Under the pieces are notes generated by a model that saw only the letters and a list, made by a program, of their open reading frames with translations, ran no database searches and was not told where the DNA came from. The translations under genes and the position numbers were made by a program. From a virus, in the IMG/VR virus record IMGVR_UViG_3300042398_001307, positions 1 to 64,000 of that record: a stretch of 64,000 bases of DNA. The stretch is one strand, 5' to 3'. Positions 28,524-35,510 of the stretch are shown here, in pieces. Each line of letters begins with the position of its first letter. Position 1 is the first letter of the stretch.

Positions 28524-28635
28524 CAGGATACGTGTTTTTAGCCTGGCGCTCTCCCATCTGAGCTACATTTCTATTGAAATGGTAGGACTTGAACCTACGA
28601 CATCTAGGGTATATAAACTTGCTGAATGTATCCTA
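28524..28635 (-). ncRNA. CAGCA-stem element E5: circularly permuted tRNA body
   Basis: T arm GTAGG-TTCAAGT-CCTAC, loop-closed acceptor CATTTC-AATA-GAAATG, D arm GCTCAGATGGGAGAGC. Confidence 0.8.
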
Positions 28636-28643
28636 AAAATTAG

Positions 28644-28743
28644 CAGGGTCACTGTATTATACTGGCATACAACCATTATACTTCTAGACGGAATCGAACC
28701 GTTCCACCAGTTTGGCTTAATATAAAATGCTGAACTGACCCTA
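28644..28743 (-). ncRNA. CAGCA-stem element E6: T arm plus D-loop-like cargo
   Basis: TAGGGTCAGTTCAGCAT...ACGG-TTCGATT-CCGT...TGACCCTG. Confidence 0.7.
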
Positions 28744-28747
28744 AATT

Positions 28748-28822
28748 TGGAAGCGGGAGTTGGATTTGAACCAACGACCTCTGGGTTATGAGCCCAGCCA
28801 TCTACCACTGATATACCCCGCG
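28748..28822 (-). tRNA. tRNA-fMet(CAT)
   Basis: C1 mismatch, GGG/CCC anticodon stem, CCA. Confidence 0.9.
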
Positions 28823-28950
28823 ATAATTCTTGTTATAACTGATACTATAGTAGATGTATATTTGATCTATGATCGCTATTATTATATGTAATAGCATCAG
28901 TTATTTTTAGTAGTATACTTGATAATATTTTAGTTGTCAAGTATTTAAAA

Positions 28951-29004
28951 CAGGCTCATTTTTTCTTGTTTGCAATAAGATTATGTTATGCTGAATTGAG
29001 CCTA
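28951..29004 (-). ncRNA. CAGCA-stem element E7: lone anticodon-like hairpin (TT-GCA-AA, Cys)
   Basis: TCTTA-TTGCAAA-CAAGA inside GGCTCA/TGAGCC stem. Confidence 0.7.
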
Positions 29005-29009
29005 AAATT

Positions 29010-29083
29010 TGGAGCGGACTACGAGATTCGAACTCGTTTAGCTAGCTTGGAAGGCTAGAGCACAACCCATATGCCAAGTCCGC
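29010..29083 (-). tRNA. tRNA-Gly(TCC)
   Basis: Cloverleaf, CCA. Confidence 0.93.
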
Positions 29084-29092
29084 AATGTTTAA

Positions 29093-29147
29093 CAGGATAC
29101 GTTTTATTTCACCAATTGAAAGTTTTGTATTTGCTGAATGTATCCTA
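29093..29147 (-). ncRNA. CAGCA-stem element E8 (short hairpin cargo)
   Basis: TAGGATACATTCAGCAA...GTATCCTG; TTTCA/TGAAA hairpin. Confidence 0.7.
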
Positions 29148-29152
29148 AAACT

Positions 29153-29228
29153 TGGAGCCTCCAATAGGAATCGAACCTACAACCCCCTGATTACAAATCA
29201 GGTGCTCTACCAATTGAGCTATAGAGGC
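29153..29228 (-). tRNA. tRNA-Thr(TGT)
   Basis: Cloverleaf, CCA. Confidence 0.93.
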
Positions 29229-29576
29229 ATTATTCTTTAAACTTTGTGTTTAGTGCCACACACTGTACAAGTGGCGTTAACTTTTTTGAAATCAAGGTTC
29301 ATTACTCGCATACCTTTTCCGTATGTTTTGTCTTGAAATTCATGATTACAATTGCATTTCTTTACTTCTACAGCCATTAGGCACCTCTTTTAATAAGAAT
29401 GTTAATACGATTTTGATATTTACGTTTATCACGTGGTCTAACAGTTTTTTCAACTAGTTCTTGTAATTTAGCTAAACTAAAATTACCAATTCTAACTCTA
29501 CCATTTTTAGTTTGATTAGGGTTAGCTTTTCTGTTTCCTTTACTAATAGTTGCCATTTGATGTCCTTATTATACTA

Positions 29577-29858
29577 TTACTTATTGTTGCTGTCAAGTGT
29601 TTTTATATTTTCTTCGATAAATTTAATTGCTTCATCGACTGGTAATTCACCCACTTCTACATGAAATACATTTCTGTCTTGTGCATGAGCACCATGTGAA
29701 TTAAATGCTACCTTTGGCAATTCTTTATCGTTGGTTGTACCTAACACTTCTTCAACAACTTCCTTTTTCTTACCGAAAATTGCATCCCAGTTATCTGCAA
29801 ACTTCTGCCTGTTAACTGGTCTAGCTGCACTTCCTTTGCCGCCATGCCATCCTGCCAT
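29577..29858 (-). CDS. Hypothetical protein
   Basis: GGKGS..RP..FADNWDAIFGKK; RBS. Confidence 0.55.
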   Translation of the reverse strand: MAGWHGGKGSAARPVNRQKFADNWDAIFGKKKEVVEEVLGTTNDKELPKVAFNSHGAHAQDRNVFHVEVGELPVDEAIKFIEENIKTLDSNNK

Positions 29859-30070
29859 TGTATCTCCGTTACATTTTTGTTGCCAATATAGTTTTGGCTA
29901 ATTCTTTTGTTGCGATTAAATCATTCTGACTAAATGAACTTTTAATCTTTTCTGAAAATTCAATTCTTTCTTCTATTGTCATTAATCTATAAATTATTTT
30001 TATCAATTCATAATCAAATTCAGTTGGTTCTTCTAAATTTTCAAACATAATAATTATCTAGTCAGTGTGT

Positions 30071-30403
30071 TTAAATTTCAGGTTGAGTTTTTATAAATCG
30101 ATCAATATTTTGAATCATCAATTGTTTCAACCTAACTTTATCATATTCAGGTTCTTTTAAACATTCTGGAAGTGTTAGCCTGAATAAAGTTTCTTTTTCT
30201 TCATCATATATGGATAATGCCCATATCTGTGTTCCACAGAATCCACTAGCAGCTAATAATATCATTTGCCACCCATCACCTTTAATAAAACTATGGGTGC
30301 GTTGCAATCGTGGTCCAACATTTGTTTTCAGAAAATCAAAAGTATTAGCTAATCTATTTTGATAATCTTCACCATAAGAATTGTTTCCGTGTATTACTAG
30401 CAT
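30071..30403 (-). CDS. Hypothetical protein
   Basis: GAGG RBS after tRNA-Ala. Confidence 0.5.
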   Translation of the reverse strand: MLVIHGNNSYGEDYQNRLANTFDFLKTNVGPRLQRTHSFIKGDGWQMILLAASGFCGTQIWALSIYDEEKETLFRLTLPECLKEPEYDKVRLKQLMIQNIDRFIKTQPEI

Positions 30404-30423
30404 TTGTGCCTCTGTGTTAAAAT

Positions 30424-30497
30424 TGGTGGAGACTAGGAGAGTTGAACTCCTGATAACGCCGTGCAAGGGCGTGGTTATACCATTTAACTAAATCCCC
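30424..30497 (-). tRNA. tRNA-Ala(TGC)
   Basis: G3:U70, CCA. Confidence 0.93.
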
Positions 30498-30500
30498 GGT

Positions 30501-33819: not shown

Positions 33820-33895
33820 TGGTACCCTGGGGGAGACTTGAACTCCCAAAACCTGGTTTCTAAGACCAGTACGTATGCCATTCCGTCACCAGGGC
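33820..33895 (-). tRNA. tRNA-Leu(TAG) with short variable loop
   Basis: CT-TAG-AA loop; 76 nt; A73-CCA. Confidence 0.85.
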
Positions 33896-33901
33896 AATAT
33901 T

Positions 33902-34153
33902 CTATTTATCTGTTAAATTTACTGCTAATAATAAAAAAGTCATCATCTTTTCATCTTTCAATCCAATCCAGTATGGGCCAGTAGATTGGCTTGCTCTATA
34001 ATGATTCCAAATACTGAAATCCATACCATATTTTTCTTTTAATGTATTTCTACATTCTTGTGCGCCTTTTGACCATGTGCTATTGAATCGTAATGCTACA
34101 ACAAATCCTTTATGGTATAGATGATGTGTTTTATTCAGTTTAACAACTTTCAT
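33902..34153 (-). CDS. Hypothetical protein
   Basis: ORF between tRNAs. Confidence 0.45.
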   Translation of the reverse strand: MKVVKLNKTHHLYHKGFVVALRFNSTWSKGAQECRNTLKEKYGMDFSIWNHYRASQSTGPYWIGLKDEKMMTFLLLAVNLTDK

Positions 34154-34168
34154 ATTATTAAAATAATT

Positions 34169-34244
34169 TGGAGCTAATAATCGGGATCGAACCGATGACC
34201 TCCACTTTACCAAAGTGGTGCTCTACCTACTGAGCTATATCAGC
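34169..34244 (-). tRNA. tRNA-Thr(GGT)
   Basis: Cloverleaf, CCA. Confidence 0.93.
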
Positions 34245-34253
34245 TTTTTAAAT

Positions 34254-34328
34254 TGGCACCCTTGGAGGGAATCGAACCCCCATCATCTAGTTCGTAGCCA
34301 GGTATTCTATCCATTAAACTACAAGGGC
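34254..34328 (-). tRNA. tRNA-Arg(ACG)
   Basis: Cloverleaf, CCA. Confidence 0.92.
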
Positions 34329-34338
34329 TTTATTTTAT

Positions 34339-34452
34339 CAGGATCTGCTTTTTACGGTTTCCTACCACTAGAAGAACTCTTATAATTAAGAGTGTAGGAT
34401 TCGAACCTACGTTCCCGGCCTGGAATGCTAATTGTATGCTGTATAGATCCTA
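34339..34452 (-). ncRNA. CAGCA-stem element E14: permuted tRNA body
   Basis: GTAGG-TTCGAAT-CCTAC, ACTCTTA-ATTA-TAAGAGT, TTCTAGTGGTAGGAA. Confidence 0.82.
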
Positions 34453-34460
34453 AAATTGTT

Positions 34461-34733
34461 TTACTTCAGCTGTGATTTTTTAAACAAACGATCCAACTTA
34501 GTGTTGATATCTTTGCAGTATTGTTCAGCCAATAATGCAGCTTTCACTGCAGCATCAGTTTTAACATTTAATACAGTCACTGCTTTGTTGGTGTCAGCCA
34601 ACTCAGAAACTAATGTTTTCTGGTTTGATTCGATCACATCGATTTCACTTTGTAATTTAGCAATATCAGAATTAGTAGCACATCCAGATAAACCAATCAA
34701 TGCGACTACTGATAACATAACTAATTTTCTCAT
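34461..34733 (-). CDS. Lpp/OprI-like alanine-zipper lipoprotein
   Basis: Lipobox LSGC, coiled coil, KLDRLFKKSQLK end. Confidence 0.75.
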   Translation of the reverse strand: MRKLVMLSVVALIGLSGCATNSDIAKLQSEIDVIESNQKTLVSELADTNKAVTVLNVKTDAAVKAALLAEQYCKDINTKLDRLFKKSQLK

Positions 34734-34762
34734 TTTACACCTTTGTTAAGTTAAAAAAAATA

Positions 34763-34854
34763 CAGGATGATATATTTTGGCGGAGCCGAGGGATTCGAAC
34801 CCCCTATAGATACCTACTTATCGGCTTCGGGATTACAGTGCTGTAATCATCCTA
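34763..34854 (-). ncRNA. CAGCA-stem element E15: acceptor plus T-arm cargo ending GCCA
   Basis: GAAGCCG...GGGGG-TTCGAAT-CCCTC-GGCTCC-GCCA inside GGATGA/TCATCC stem. Confidence 0.75.
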
Positions 34855-34864
34855 TGTTAAACAA

Positions 34865-35278
34865 TTAAGATAATCGTTCTTTTTCTGATTCCATAAAGCG
34901 TGTTCGTTTTACAAGTGATAAAACGAATTCTGACTCAGCGATTGATTTGGAATCAAGATCAATTCGCAAGTTCAAGAAATACGAAACATCGTTGTGAGTT
35001 AGTTTGATTGAGTTGAAATCAGTAACTTCACCAGTAAATGATGATGGTACTTTGATAACAATGTCTAACAGTCTTTCAAAATGTTTATCCGCATCAATGA
35101 AATACTGTTCAACGAATGATTTCAAATGATGTGGTGTATTTCTCATGGTATCGGTTTTATAATTTCTGTAAGAACCAACCGAAACTTTTACCGCTTCAAT
35201 AAGGTCAGTACCAGTGTATCTAGGATACTCAGGGATTAAGTTGTAAGGGGTTTTTACTTCTTGTTCAATTACTAGCAT
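34865..35278 (-). CDS. Hypothetical protein
   Basis: ORF between RNA genes. Confidence 0.5.
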   Translation of the reverse strand: MLVIEQEVKTPYNLIPEYPRYTGTDLIEAVKVSVGSYRNYKTDTMRNTPHHLKSFVEQYFIDADKHFERLLDIVIKVPSSFTGEVTDFNSIKLTHNDVSYFLNLRIDLDSKSIAESEFVLSLVKRTRFMESEKERLS

Positions 35279-35306
35279 TATATCATTCCGATAATAGTTA
35301 AAAAAT

Positions 35307-35380
35307 TGGCAGGGATACAAGAACTCGAATCTTGAATGCCAGAATCAAAATCTGGTGTGTTACCATTACACTATATCCCA
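35307..35380 (-). tRNA. tRNA-Gln(TTG)
   Basis: Cloverleaf, CCA. Confidence 0.9.
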
Positions 35381-35390
35381 ATTGTTATTA

Positions 35391-35510
35391 CAGGTTAGCA
35401 TTTTAAGTTTTCCCAATTAAACTACATTAAGTGACCAACCCTAACGCTGGGATTCGAACCCAGAACTTTCTTTTACAATAAGATTTAATAAAATTGCTGA
35501 AACTAACCTA
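35391..35510 (-). ncRNA. CAGCA-stem element E16: complete permuted tRNA (anticodon, T, acceptor, D order)
   Basis: TCTT-ATTGTAA-AAGA, CTGGG-TTCGAAT-CCCAG, CGTTAGG-loop-CTTAATG, GTTTAATTGGGAAAAC. Confidence 0.8.

Follow-up and report, generated by a model that had tools for sequence, protein, structure and literature searches.

In the 64,000 nucleotides of viral DNA analysed here (the window), which come from a large lake phage, small RNAs built from rearranged tRNAs on a shared stem are hidden among the tRNA genes. Five full elements (E5, E12, E13, E14 and E16) run in the order T arm, loop-closed acceptor stem and D arm, a fold that is conserved in their relatives; they stand in an array that ends at a gene for a DUF2828/DUF7788 protein, and some of them occur in RNA libraries. 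Our reading, to which we give a probability of roughly 0.6, is that they belong to a phage variant of the Ro/Y-RNA particles, equipped with tRNA-mimic modules and probably used in conflicts over tRNA. The features on which this reading is built are listed in Table 1.

Table 1. Position, parts and basis of the features discussed in the text (scores in bits).
Feature	Position	Strand	Parts	Basis
E13, permuted tRNA-like RNA on handle	32152..32282	-	T arm 32233-32217; 7-bp acceptor hairpin 32216-32194, 9-nt loop; D arm 32191-32175	R2 103.2; YrlA 41.6; strict parse
E5, permuted tRNA-like RNA	28521..28639	-	T arm 28598-28582; 6-bp acceptor hairpin 28581-28566, 4-nt loop; D arm 28563-28548	R2 92.3; YrlA 38.7; strict parse
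E12, permuted tRNA-like RNA	31881..32022	-	T arm 31964-31948; 7-bp acceptor hairpin 31947-31929; D arm 31926-31910	R2 78.8; strict parse; predicted fold
E14, permuted tRNA-like RNA	34336..34456	-	T arm 34410-34394; 7-bp acceptor hairpin 34393-34376; D arm 34373-34360	R2 88.9; strict parse
E16, complete permuted tRNA mimic	35388..35514	-	T arm 35463-35447; 7-bp acceptor hairpin 35446-35425; D arm 35422-35407	R2 95.0; YrlA 31.8; strict parse
E11, reduced version	31793..31879	-	T arm 31850-31834 with two G-U pairs; 4-bp hairpin; D-like arm, 5-nt loop	R2 40.4; strict parse failed, relaxed parse passed
Rest of handle family	27497..39116	-		Handle pattern and reading by eye
Other pattern-found handle elements	27720-27834, 28641-28747, 28948-29008, 29090-29151, 31422-31492	-		
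Further pattern-found handle elements	31494-31589, 34760-34858, 35824-35895, 37973-38042, 39054-39116	-		
Two extra handle elements	27840-27935, 27497-27715	-		Read by eye
Inside-out handle copy	39682..39733	-		Read from sequence
Cargo-less handle copy, 5' leader of Ro-like gene	26942..26981	-		Read from sequence
470-aa DUF2828 + DUF7788 protein, probable Ro60-like partner	25514..26926	-		Pfam, PHROG, homolog annotation
T4 Rnl1-type RNA ligase gene	19049..19948	-		PF09511 E 1.2e-12; PHROG 562, 505 for ligase/kinase set
Polynucleotide-kinase-like P-loop gene	22718-23188			PF13671 E 2.4e-18
Permuted tmRNA copy	43487-43884			

All the elements lie on the minus strand, which is that of all 26 tRNA genes. 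Each permuted body is enclosed by a shared closing stem, the handle, in which 7-8 bp join the 5' and 3' ends, the 5' strand is followed by the single-stranded motif UNCAGCAA, and CCUGU stands at the end. A pattern search found 16 such handle elements, including E5, E11, E12, E13, E14 and E16; the pattern occurs 19 times in the window against 2.5 expected, a count that none of 100 shuffles reached and that is far beyond chance. The handle model R1 recovered 14 of the 16 elements in full and a fragment of a fifteenth (E12), and it missed the one at 28641-28747. In the inside-out copy, the two handle strands are linked by a 3-nt loop, with a 5-bp stem that terminates in GCCA at the open end; this copy shows that free ends are not required for the handle to work as a unit.

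The original prediction had assigned the permuted order to six elements, and this holds for five of them. A strict parse, consisting of a 5-bp T stem with a UUCRANN loop, a perfect hairpin and, after 1-3 nt, a D stem-loop containing GG, was passed by E5, E12, E13, E14 and E16 (five of the window's 16 handle elements) and by only 3 of 2500 shuffled long elements. The same five reach 79-103 bits under R2, a covariance model of the whole permuted architecture, while E11 scores at the level of the elements that carry only a handle; we count it as a reduced version of the permuted body, and no ortholog of it was found among the fetched loci. The strings quoted earlier for E13 (ATCCCCG/CGGGGAT) are present in the sequence. 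ARAGORN called none of the elements as a tRNA.

The handle had also been said to replace the anticodon loop in every body except that of E16. This is the case in E5 and E12, where the handle occupies that position (in E12 it is lengthened by a further helix), whereas in E13 and E14 a local stem of 2 bp still carries an anticodon-type loop of 7 nt, with UGG and UCC respectively. E16 keeps an anticodon-type arm of 4-5 bp with a loop reading UGU, followed by a 5-nt variable region, the T arm, the acceptor hairpin and the D arm, so that its break falls between the D arm and the anticodon arm. Within the E16 family the triplet at positions 34-36 varies, with nine different ones among 16 orthologs, and the surrounding arm is conserved. 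With an anticodon-type loop retained in three of the five bodies and an E16 triplet that varies within a conserved arm, the evidence points to mimicry of whole tRNAs, for which the term elbow mimic, proposed at first, is too narrow. Over 19 nt the D arm of E13 is identical to that of tRNA-Pro(UGG) from the same window, and UGG is also what the loop retained in E13 reads. The types of D arm differ among the bodies, the arms being too short and too conserved to prove the separate origins that this might suggest.

The fold is under selection and not in decay. From 32 sequences, RNAalifold predicted the handle, the T arm, the acceptor hairpin and the D arm unaided; 18 of 24 pairs are changed on both sides, and the covariation score was reached by none of 500 shuffles. 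A covariance model made from this alignment gave 61 matches at E<=1e-9 in the window and 99 loci on other viral contigs, 29 of them absent from the seed, and among these 61 relatives 19 of 24 pairs are changed on both sides, with covariation at all 7 pairs of the acceptor helix. The share of paired cells is 94.5% for the 32 sequences and 98.2% for the 61, such shares being inflated in alignment A3 by its pre-selection with a parse that demands pairing and in alignment A4 by its fitting to the model. The bases of the D/T-loop contact are nearly invariant (U8 in 58/61, A14 in 59/61, G18 in 58/61, G19 in 57/61, U54 in 61/61, U55 in 58/61, C56 in 60/61, A58 in 61/61). Compensatory changes are also seen in orthologs picked by BLAST and not by structure. 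In the related locus L019, the ortholog of E13 differs in loops, including the triplet (UGG to GUG), that of E12 is 97% identical, and that of E14 is 82% identical with compensatory changes in the T stem and the acceptor stem; for E16, of which other contigs contain ten related copies, pairing is kept through changes at four pairs of the acceptor stem and one of the T stem.

As assembled contigs, which show neither ends nor strand and possibly include DNA, the metatranscriptomes of two studies cover E5, E12 and neighbouring elements, E5 within contigs spanning 28515-29152 and E12 in an RNA-library contig over 31859-32011 with 1 difference. The contigs of a relative jump from 31872 to 32016, skipping 143 bases between points inside the 5' handle segments of E11 and E12, and this relative thus misses one element-sized unit. 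In run X4, the RNA-gene stretches were covered and most protein-coding stretches were not.

The gene at which the array ends, separated from the last large element by two small ORFs, encodes a product that matches Pfam PF25043 (E 8.7e-48) and PF11443 (E 5.9e-21) and PHROG 850 'RNA-binding protein', and its homologs in cultured mycobacteriophages are annotated 'Ro-like RNA binding protein'. When the family profile is compared with the PDB, Ro60/TROVE chains come first, with E values of 0.065-0.22, a marginal link confined to the vWA metal site, whose MIDAS residues D273, S275 and S277 are invariant in 87 homologs. The DUF2828 gene is found in 49 of 119 loci, which were fetched by the handle pattern only. 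In three complete relatives of 235-364 kb, all handle matches (2, 6 and 7) lie at most 16 kb upstream of the gene and on its strand; canonical TROVE was found in 0 of 5 cases and DUF2828 in 5 of 5. A handle model built from lake-phage copies only also finds a match in a cyanophage (47.6 bits) and one in mycobacteriophage Whirlwind (26.5 bits), each adjoining the homologous gene, as well as a weak one (16.5 bits, E 0.048) in the tRNA array of a Felix O1-type phage, about 500 nt downstream of the homologous gene. Whirlwind has three tandem handle RNAs, the middle one of which carries a permuted tRNA body that scores 38.3 bits with the Rfam YrlA model. The cargo-less handle copy of the window stops just 5' of the ribosome-binding site of the Ro-like gene; among 44 related loci, 32 have a strict handle whose end falls 13-30 nt short of the ATG, compared with 50 of 1760 places chosen at random, and the window's own leader copy, which has a bulge, fails this strict test. 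Other nearby genes are those for an Rnl1-type ligase, a Pnk-like kinase, PTH2 and a permuted tmRNA, and the ligase and kinase genes, which lie downstream of the Ro-like gene, together resemble a set for tRNA repair.

According to the reading that we prefer, the five full elements, with E11 as a reduced form, would be small stable RNAs cut from the long tRNA transcript of the phage and made of two modules, the handle and the circularly permuted tRNA body with its loop-closed acceptor stem, which should adopt the L-shape of a tRNA and could not be charged. The Ro60-like protein whose gene closes the array would bind the handle, and these RNAs would then be the phage counterpart of the YrlA-type Y RNAs; we consider it rather probable that the DUF2828/DUF7788 protein does bind them. 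The odds are about even that this protein also binds the handle copy in its own leader and thereby limits its own synthesis. The tRNA-shaped module may serve as a look-alike shown to tRNA-recognising proteins, and here we can only tentatively propose a decoy for host defence enzymes that cut or modify tRNA, or a tether that recruits to damaged tRNA the Ro-like protein as well as the RNA ligase and kinase encoded nearby.

The alternative that survives best, although its probability is low, is compatible with the preferred reading, and both can coexist. It supposes that the elements are precursors opened in the acceptor loop by RNase P and 3' trimming into two-piece tRNA-like molecules with a free CCA-tailed acceptor end, like the YrlA of M. 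smegmatis and the two-piece tmRNA. The main determinant of RNase P cleavage of YrlA is a 7-bp acceptor stem (Chen et al. 2014, PMC4201824), which four of the five bodies have, and the same phage has a permuted tmRNA with the same gene order. N-CCA directly follows the acceptor 3' strand in 2 of the 61 aligned relatives, and further cases were seen by eye in the loci L005, L040, L043, L007 and L046, but CCA in this place and a G3:U70 pair are each present in 0 of the 5 window bodies, the acceptor loops mostly have just 3-9 nt, and the contig data, in which ends do not show, give no internal ends.

Somewhat less probable still is that these are spacers of the tRNA operon or processing or stability elements that have no protein partner of their own, do not act in trans and use their closing stem to guide RNase E or RNase P cuts or to block exonucleases. 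The elements are arranged in tandem; they open with an A/G-UUUU stretch 1-2 nt past the CCA of the tRNA before them, and their U-rich 5' flank resembles an RNase E site. Such a role would leave unexplained the tRNA-shaped cargo with its conserved tertiary bases, an inside-out copy that has no free ends, the occurrence of a handle in the leader of a single specific gene, and the presence of the same motif next to the homologous gene in cyanobacterial, mycobacterial and enterobacterial phages.

The idea, in simpler form also part of the original prediction as its less likely option, that the elements are precursors of real tRNAs, circularised by the phage ligase via the handle ends and then opened in the acceptor loop, as in the permuted tRNA genes of red algae, remains very improbable. 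The Rnl1-type ligase and the kinase are encoded 6-9 kb away and E13, E14 and E16 keep anticodon-type loops, but E5 and E12 have none, the product would carry an extra helix of about 30 nt at the D/anticodon junction, the elements have neither CCA nor a bulge-helix-bulge motif, the phage already has its ordinary tRNA genes, and ARAGORN called 50 of 61 de-permuted forms, no better than the 46-48 of 61 obtained with shuffled linkers. Least probable of all, and already disfavoured, is functionless debris of tRNA gene duplication and recombination. The 3' half of one tRNA gene and the 5' half of the next can yield the permuted order and the Rfam YrlA model weakly matches real tRNA junctions too (20-25 bits), but all four helices covary, orthologs differ by compensatory changes, 61 copies exist across contigs, and the acceptor strands are complementary with no matching tRNA gene pair found.

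Among known systems, the Class I RNAs of Dictyostelia (RF01414; Kjellin et al. 2021, PMC7919456) resemble the handle only, through a short end-joining stem, a conserved motif ending in CAGCAA after the 5' stem strand, an A-rich tail, a 3' end CUGU and short forms of about 60 nt. All eight RF01414 matches fall on handle elements over the full length, at 23-31 bits against a threshold of 41.5 bits. The hosts of Class I RNAs are eukaryotes, their genes have their own promoter element, and their known binding protein, as described in PMC7919456, is an RRM protein, the sections consulted reporting no tRNA-like cargo. The two-piece tmRNA of Alphaproteobacteria (RF04321, RF01849) shares the order T arm, acceptor 3' strand, loop, acceptor 5' strand and D-like region and has a long helix in the position of the anticodon arm, whereas our elements have no tag reading frame, pseudoknots, encoded CCA or G3:U70 pair, and the Rfam tmRNA models gave no match on them.

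A close likeness is that to the YrlA-type Y RNAs (RF02553; PMC4201824), and the match in topology first proposed is supported. In both, a stem joins the ends, a conserved single-stranded motif follows its 5' strand, then come the T arm, the acceptor-like stem-loop and the D arm, and the genes adjoin that of a Ro-type protein and are also found in phages. E13, E5 and E16 align over the full RF02553 model, all below its gathering score of 69 bits; the alignment takes in the T arm, the acceptor-like hairpin, the D arm and the closing stem, with the lower Ro-binding stem out of register. The elements also differ in their motif (UNCAGCAA against GNCGAA), in their putative DUF2828/DUF7788 partner, which has no TROVE match, and in their five to six copies in a single genome within a tRNA array, some with an anticodon loop. 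The Thermus phage phiLo likewise encodes a Ro-type ring protein, with the partner RNAs Yrl1 and Yrl2 adjoining its gene (Hu et al. 2025, PMC12135203), and its chains (PDB 9KOP, 9L5Y) are among the top PDB matches of our family profile; phiLo has a canonical TROVE protein, a CGAA motif served to select its RNAs, and a tRNA-array context is not part of the description consulted in PMC12135203.

Two phage proteins studied elsewhere bring us back to the family of the window's protein. Bas63 gp130, from the PhageMaP preprint (PMC11482910), belongs to it as a member of Felix O1 type, the DNA of bas63_0130 being 94.9% identical to the Felix O1-type homolog, and for the Listeria phage protein CKA15_055 we infer membership from homologs in related P100-like Listeria phages only. 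Both genes adjoin tRNA genes (PMC11482910, PMC12282133): that of gp130, a protein with 'high structural similarity to Ro60', is directly upstream of them (PMC11482910), and CKA15_055, whose top HHpred match is D. radiodurans Rsr, is downstream of putative Y RNAs (PMC12282133). The two reports guess that the nearby RNAs are Y RNAs, and the RNAs, the handle and the permuted tRNA bodies are not identified in the parts of them consulted. Bas63 gp130 is reported to counter the Ppl defence, and as it does so alone, when expressed from a plasmid or from T7 (PMC11482910), the RNAs are not needed for this relief. The Ro60-like protein beside our elements belongs to a family of which a member in another phage has already been shown to counter bacterial defence.

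The permuted tRNA bodies of this lake-phage array are real and conserved, and they are probably expressed. Six minus-strand elements (E5, E11, E12, E13, E14 and E16) had originally been predicted to run from a T arm, through an acceptor hairpin closed by a loop, to a D arm. A strict parse, which demands a T arm, a perfect hairpin, a spacer and a D arm, is passed by all of them except E11, as well as by 39 of 125 long elements from other contigs and by 3 of 2500 shuffled sequences. The covariance model of the full architecture gives E11 40 bits versus 79-103 bits for the other five; the tRNA-like module, with its conserved tertiary-contact bases, is present in five elements, and E11 holds a reduced form only. 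The handle, i.e. the closing stem and motif that enclose each body, was also thought to replace the anticodon loop everywhere but in E16. This holds for E5 and E12, but E13 and E14 keep a 7-nt loop (UGG and UCC, respectively), their breakpoint lying inside the 5' strand of the anticodon stem. In E16, the breakpoint falls between the D arm and the anticodon arm, which is retained whole. The D arm of E13 is that of a tRNA-Pro, the only convincing match to a donor tRNA among the elements; the D and T arms are too short to build a tree of donor origins. Three permuted bodies of other contigs carry an insertion of 76-90 nt in the acceptor loop (see the table).

The closing stem of each element is 7-8 bp long (AGGNNNN with NNNNCCU, the four inner pairs covarying), its 5' strand is followed by the conserved motif UNCAGCAA, and the 3' end reads CCUGU. 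On the tRNA strand of the window, the handle pattern occurs 19 times against 2.5 expected by chance. When each copy is joined to the partner upstream of it, 16 elements of 61-142 nt result; inspection by eye added four copies, of which two lie near 27.5-27.9 kb, another is in the leader of a protein gene and the last is inside-out. The exact pattern is found in at least 119 IMG/VR viral contigs, and the DNA fetched around them holds 276 handle elements (259 distinct), with length peaks at 60-70, 100-130 and 170-250 nt. A short-form covariance model has 186 matches in 60 of the fetched loci. Many short elements contain a hairpin shaped like a bare anticodon arm (4-5 bp stem, 7-nt loop CU-NNN-AA), also seen in short handles of other contigs, of a cyanophage and of the mycobacteriophage Whirlwind. 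No handle element attains any Rfam gathering score; the handle has no Rfam family, and the large conserved cargo (170-250 nt) within some handles matches no Rfam family either. Other large-cargo handles were seen at L003, L017, L023, L027, L062 and further loci. Unannotated structured RNAs therefore exist inside phage "tRNA clusters".

The fold is maintained in homologs. With a MAFFT alignment of 32 elements as its sole input, RNAalifold recovers all four helices; in this alignment, 94.5% of the cells are paired and the covariation score is 0.61, versus 0.17 for shuffles and about 0.1 for slid partners. As these 32 elements had been pre-selected for pairing, a model was built from them and used to search the window and 99 loci, which gave 61 matches, 29 of them new. 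In the resulting alignment, fitted to the model and hence biased towards it, 98.2% of the cells are paired, both sides have changed in 19 of the 24 pairs, and five or six pair types occur at each position of the acceptor helix. Orthologs found by BLAST alone provide a check that is independent of structure. Between E16 and its counterpart in contig L019, four acceptor pairs and one T-stem pair have changed with pairing kept in all; for E14 and the same contig, two T-stem pairs and one acceptor pair have changed and are still paired. Almost no variation is seen in the bases that form the tRNA elbow. Covariation, compensatory changes in orthologs and these elbow bases together indicate that the stems are maintained, and random decay, which the original prediction had named as the outcome that would speak against it, is not what the homologs display.

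Expression is suggested by four freshwater metatranscriptome runs from two studies, which contain parts of the array; these runs hold only 6-19% of the sampled words, so that uncovered stretches mean nothing. Contigs of relatives (90-99% alike) span, among others, E5 and its neighbours, the large element at 27507-27703 and E12 (153 nt, 1 difference), without resolving ends, strand or level. In one run (X4), the tRNA, tmRNA and handle-RNA stretches are covered and most protein-coding stretches are not. Two runs contain a relative's form that joins 31872 to 32016, within the 5' handle segments of E11 and E12. The 143 missing bases amount to one element-sized unit, so elements seem to be gained or lost by recombination between handles.

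The source record is 88 kb long and judged 25% complete, the window being its first 64 kb. Its minus strand carries 26 tRNA genes, the permuted tmRNA and a Polynucleobacter-1 RNA over about 27.5-43.9 kb, interspersed with small genes (two GIY-YIG-type homing endonucleases, PTH2, a phosphatase, Cpn10 and a PPIase). None of the cultured phages is a close relative at the DNA level: when a 7.9-kb stretch was compared to phage records by blastn, it matched only homing-endonuclease and tRNA sequences, with at most 9% of the query covered. The phage also encodes chaperones and a cyclase protein, which are listed with the other features.

Features of the RNA array, its genomic surroundings and related contigs (window positions unless a locus is named)
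Feature	Position	Strand	Remarks
Ro-like gene (DUF2828/DUF7788)	25514-26926	-	470 aa
Large-cargo handle element	27497-27715	-	just upstream of the Ro-like gene region; RNA-library contig over 27507-27703
Short elements, including many with anticodon-arm-like hairpin	28948-29008, 29090-29151, 31422-31492, 35824-35895, 37973-38042, 39054-39116	-	
RF01414 matches	29093-29145, 37976-38036, 39057-39110	-	also L038, L109, L019
GIY-YIG Seg-like homing endonuclease genes (two)	30501-31169, 32885-33496	-	inside tRNA/RNA array; ~70% DNA identity to T4-like Klebsiella phage genes
E16-family arm	35463-35500	-	orthologs L004, L010, L015, L019, L040, L043, L045, L056, L064, L069, L085, L090, L093, L099
CUA-anticodon tRNA (ARAGORN label Pyl)	43381-43455	-	looks amber-suppressor type; adjoins permuted tmRNA
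Permuted tmRNA	43487-43884		adjoins CUA tRNA
CHASE2-adenylate/guanylate cyclase protein, GroEL-type and DnaK-type chaperones, Cpn10	46607-48661, 58520-62088, 27939-28226	-	
Relatives with one base + CCA after acceptor 3' strand	L005 2361-2513	-	
	L097 384-515		
	L040 5899-5998		
	L043 5613-5713		
	L007 3752-3862		
Acceptor-loop insertions	L043 5322-5518, L040 5471-5681, L015 10238-10446		76-90 nt

Among the known RNA classes, the closest to the handle itself is the Dictyostelium Class I RNA (RF01414). All eight Rfam matches to this family fall on short handle elements, over the full length, and agree with its consensus in the stem letters, in the motif ending in CAGCAA, in the A-rich tail and in the 3' CUG. 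A10 is conserved in 257, A11 in 250 and CUGU in 245 of the 259 elements. Membership is nevertheless rejected, the scores being 23-31 bits for a threshold of 41.5. A second possibility is that of permuted tRNA genes such as those of red algae, in which circularisation at a bulge-helix-bulge motif leads to a normal tRNA that has an anticodon arm and a chargeable 3' end. When the 61 aligned bodies were re-ordered and submitted to ARAGORN, as had been proposed, 50 were called tRNA, but so were 46-48 when the linkers were shuffled; only 12 of the 61, and none of the window's five, had a robustness count above the 99th percentile of controls. De-permutation confirms the tRNA likeness of the acceptor, D and T parts only, the anticodon arm being outside its reach. 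E5 and E12 are devoid of an anticodon loop and no CCA follows the acceptor 3' strand, so this type of gene is rejected. A two-piece tmRNA, the hallmarks of which are a tag reading frame, an encoded CCA and G3:U70, is dismissed, as the elements match no tmRNA family, have no CCA in place and show no G3:U70 in their acceptor strands. Some relatives do have one base and CCA between the acceptor 3' strand and the loop; genuine precursors of permuted tRNAs or two-piece tmRNAs are arranged in this way.

The gene reached at the end of the array codes for 470 aa with the Pfam domains DUF2828 and DUF7788, and several observations tie it to the handle RNAs. It is present in 49 of the 119 loci, although these were fetched solely for the handle. 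Three complete genomes (235-364 kb) have all their handle matches at most 16 kb upstream of the gene and on the same strand, and a TROVE gene is absent from these genomes. In 32 of 44 loci, versus 2.8% of random places, the leader contains a handle whose end is 13-30 nt from the start codon, with the ribosome-binding site directly after it, which suggests that the gene is autoregulated via this handle. A handle model built from the lake-phage copies only also has matches near the gene in other phages: in a Synechococcus phage at 100 nt upstream, in Whirlwind immediately downstream and, more weakly, in a Felix O1-type phage at about 500 nt downstream, within a tRNA array. It has no match in the stretch of Cronobacter phage GAP32 that was searched (L120, 7504-10452), a 359-kb jumbo phage in which an RNA ligase gene immediately precedes the DUF2828 gene (169-nt gap). 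In Whirlwind, three handle RNAs come after the gene, and the middle one, which contains a permuted tRNA body (acceptor hairpin of 7 bp), scores 38.3 bits as YrlA in Rfam. It is probably the phage YrlA listed by Chen et al. 2014. Apart from that list, which may include such an element, we found no paper on the CAGCAA handle or on permuted tRNA bodies beside DUF2828 genes, none on DUF2828 in connection with phages or RNA, and, judging by titles and abstracts, none on permuted tRNA genes in phages.

The protein family is large, with 7066 matches among 8000 scored candidates, 6118 cluster representatives and 710 cultured phage records. Its members are annotated as 'Ro-like RNA binding protein' in mycobacteriophages and as 'RNA-binding protein' or 'vWFA protein' elsewhere, and PHROG 850 is labelled 'RNA-binding protein'. 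NCBIfam has no family for the 470-aa protein, and a search of the ESM Atlas with it returned its own family only and no structure. Ro60/TROVE proteins consist of a HEAT-repeat ring and a vWA domain with a MIDAS site, and the DxSxS residues of this metal site are invariant in the family homologs. When a profile of 87 homologs was compared to the PDB, Xenopus Ro60, a Thermus phage TROVE protein and human RO60 made up four of the five best matches; these are marginal (E 0.065-0.22) and span the vWA DxSxS metal site only. For Bas63 gp130 (PMC11482910) and the Listeria phage protein CKA15_055 (PMC12282133), the best structural or HHpred match is reported to be Ro60/Rsr. The former is a member of the family: bas63_0130 is 94.9% DNA-identical to the AYO145A gene, the product of which is 40.8% identical to the window's protein over its whole length. 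The latter can be taken as a member, because related P100-like Listeria phages have homologs.

Downstream of the Ro-like gene come a YqeY-like gene, a Pnk-like kinase, a T4 Rnl1-type RNA ligase and a phosphoesterase, a neighbourhood that resembles the tRNA repair set of T4, which is used against an anticodon nuclease. Orthologs of E16 share a conserved anticodon-type arm and differ in its triplet, with nine triplets in 16 copies (GAA, GUA, GGA, UAG, UGA, ACG, GCA, UGU and CCA); the triplet of E13 likewise differs from that of a 95%-identical ortholog. A conserved arm with a varying triplet fits a mimic whose target recognises anticodons, which favours a role in which the permuted RNAs would act as a decoy or a tether in a conflict over tRNA. 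In Iyer et al. 2021, a TROVE protein with 'a tRNA-like partner' in some jumbo phages is presented as an RNA-repair platform, and PMC11482910 reports that the Ppl defence is countered by Bas63 gp130 even without the phage's RNAs. A bolder reading, to which we would give roughly one chance in seven, is that the CAGCAA-handle RNAs and the DUF2828/DUF7788 proteins constitute a second, undescribed Ro/Y-RNA branch. The phage would then own a library of changeable tRNA look-alikes, from whole permuted tRNAs to elbows and bare anticodon arms, the swapping of triplets between related phages would suggest decoys or baits for anticodon-specific host nucleases, and the handle shared with Dictyostelium Class I RNAs could extend the partnership to eukaryotes.

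Ro60 and Y RNAs are conserved from bacteria to humans and, to our knowledge, the purpose of the tRNA-like domain in bacterial Y RNAs is still unknown. Here, a single phage array holds five to six such domains, some of them complete to an anticodon loop with a changing triplet, next to tRNA repair genes and to a protein family that defeats a bacterial defence in one published case. This offers a concrete setting in which to ask what Y-RNA tRNA mimicry serves, namely which host enzymes the mimics bind or absorb.

The likeness to YrlA (RF02553) is only partial. The announced match in topology is found for the T arm, the acceptor hairpin, the D arm and a short stem beneath, which align, but the Ro-binding stem is out of register. 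Run end to end, the Rfam YrlA model gives 41.6 bits for E13, 38.7 for E5 and 31.8 for E16, and 31-49 bits for relatives, all below the gathering score of 69 bits; E12 and E14 have no match at E<=10. As to the Ro-binding motif GNCGAA(N)G, no G-N-CGAA is present in the handle of any of the six elements, the only match among them being in the D arm of E12, and the handle motif UNCAGCAA differs from it. YrlA is encoded beside a Ro60/Rsr (TROVE) gene, is bound by Ro60 and carries dihydrouridine and pseudouridine modifications; neither the 88-kb record nor five related records yielded a TROVE match, and the array ends at the DUF2828/DUF7788 gene with its homologs annotated Ro-like elsewhere. Membership in the Rfam YrlA family thus fails on score and motif, and the elements are best classified as a variant of the YrlA-type Y RNAs that has another motif in its handle, a Ro-like partner that is divergent, and several paralogous copies, some of which retain a variable anticodon loop. 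The comparison to a tRNA mimic carried on a Ro-binding stem stands as a working analogy.
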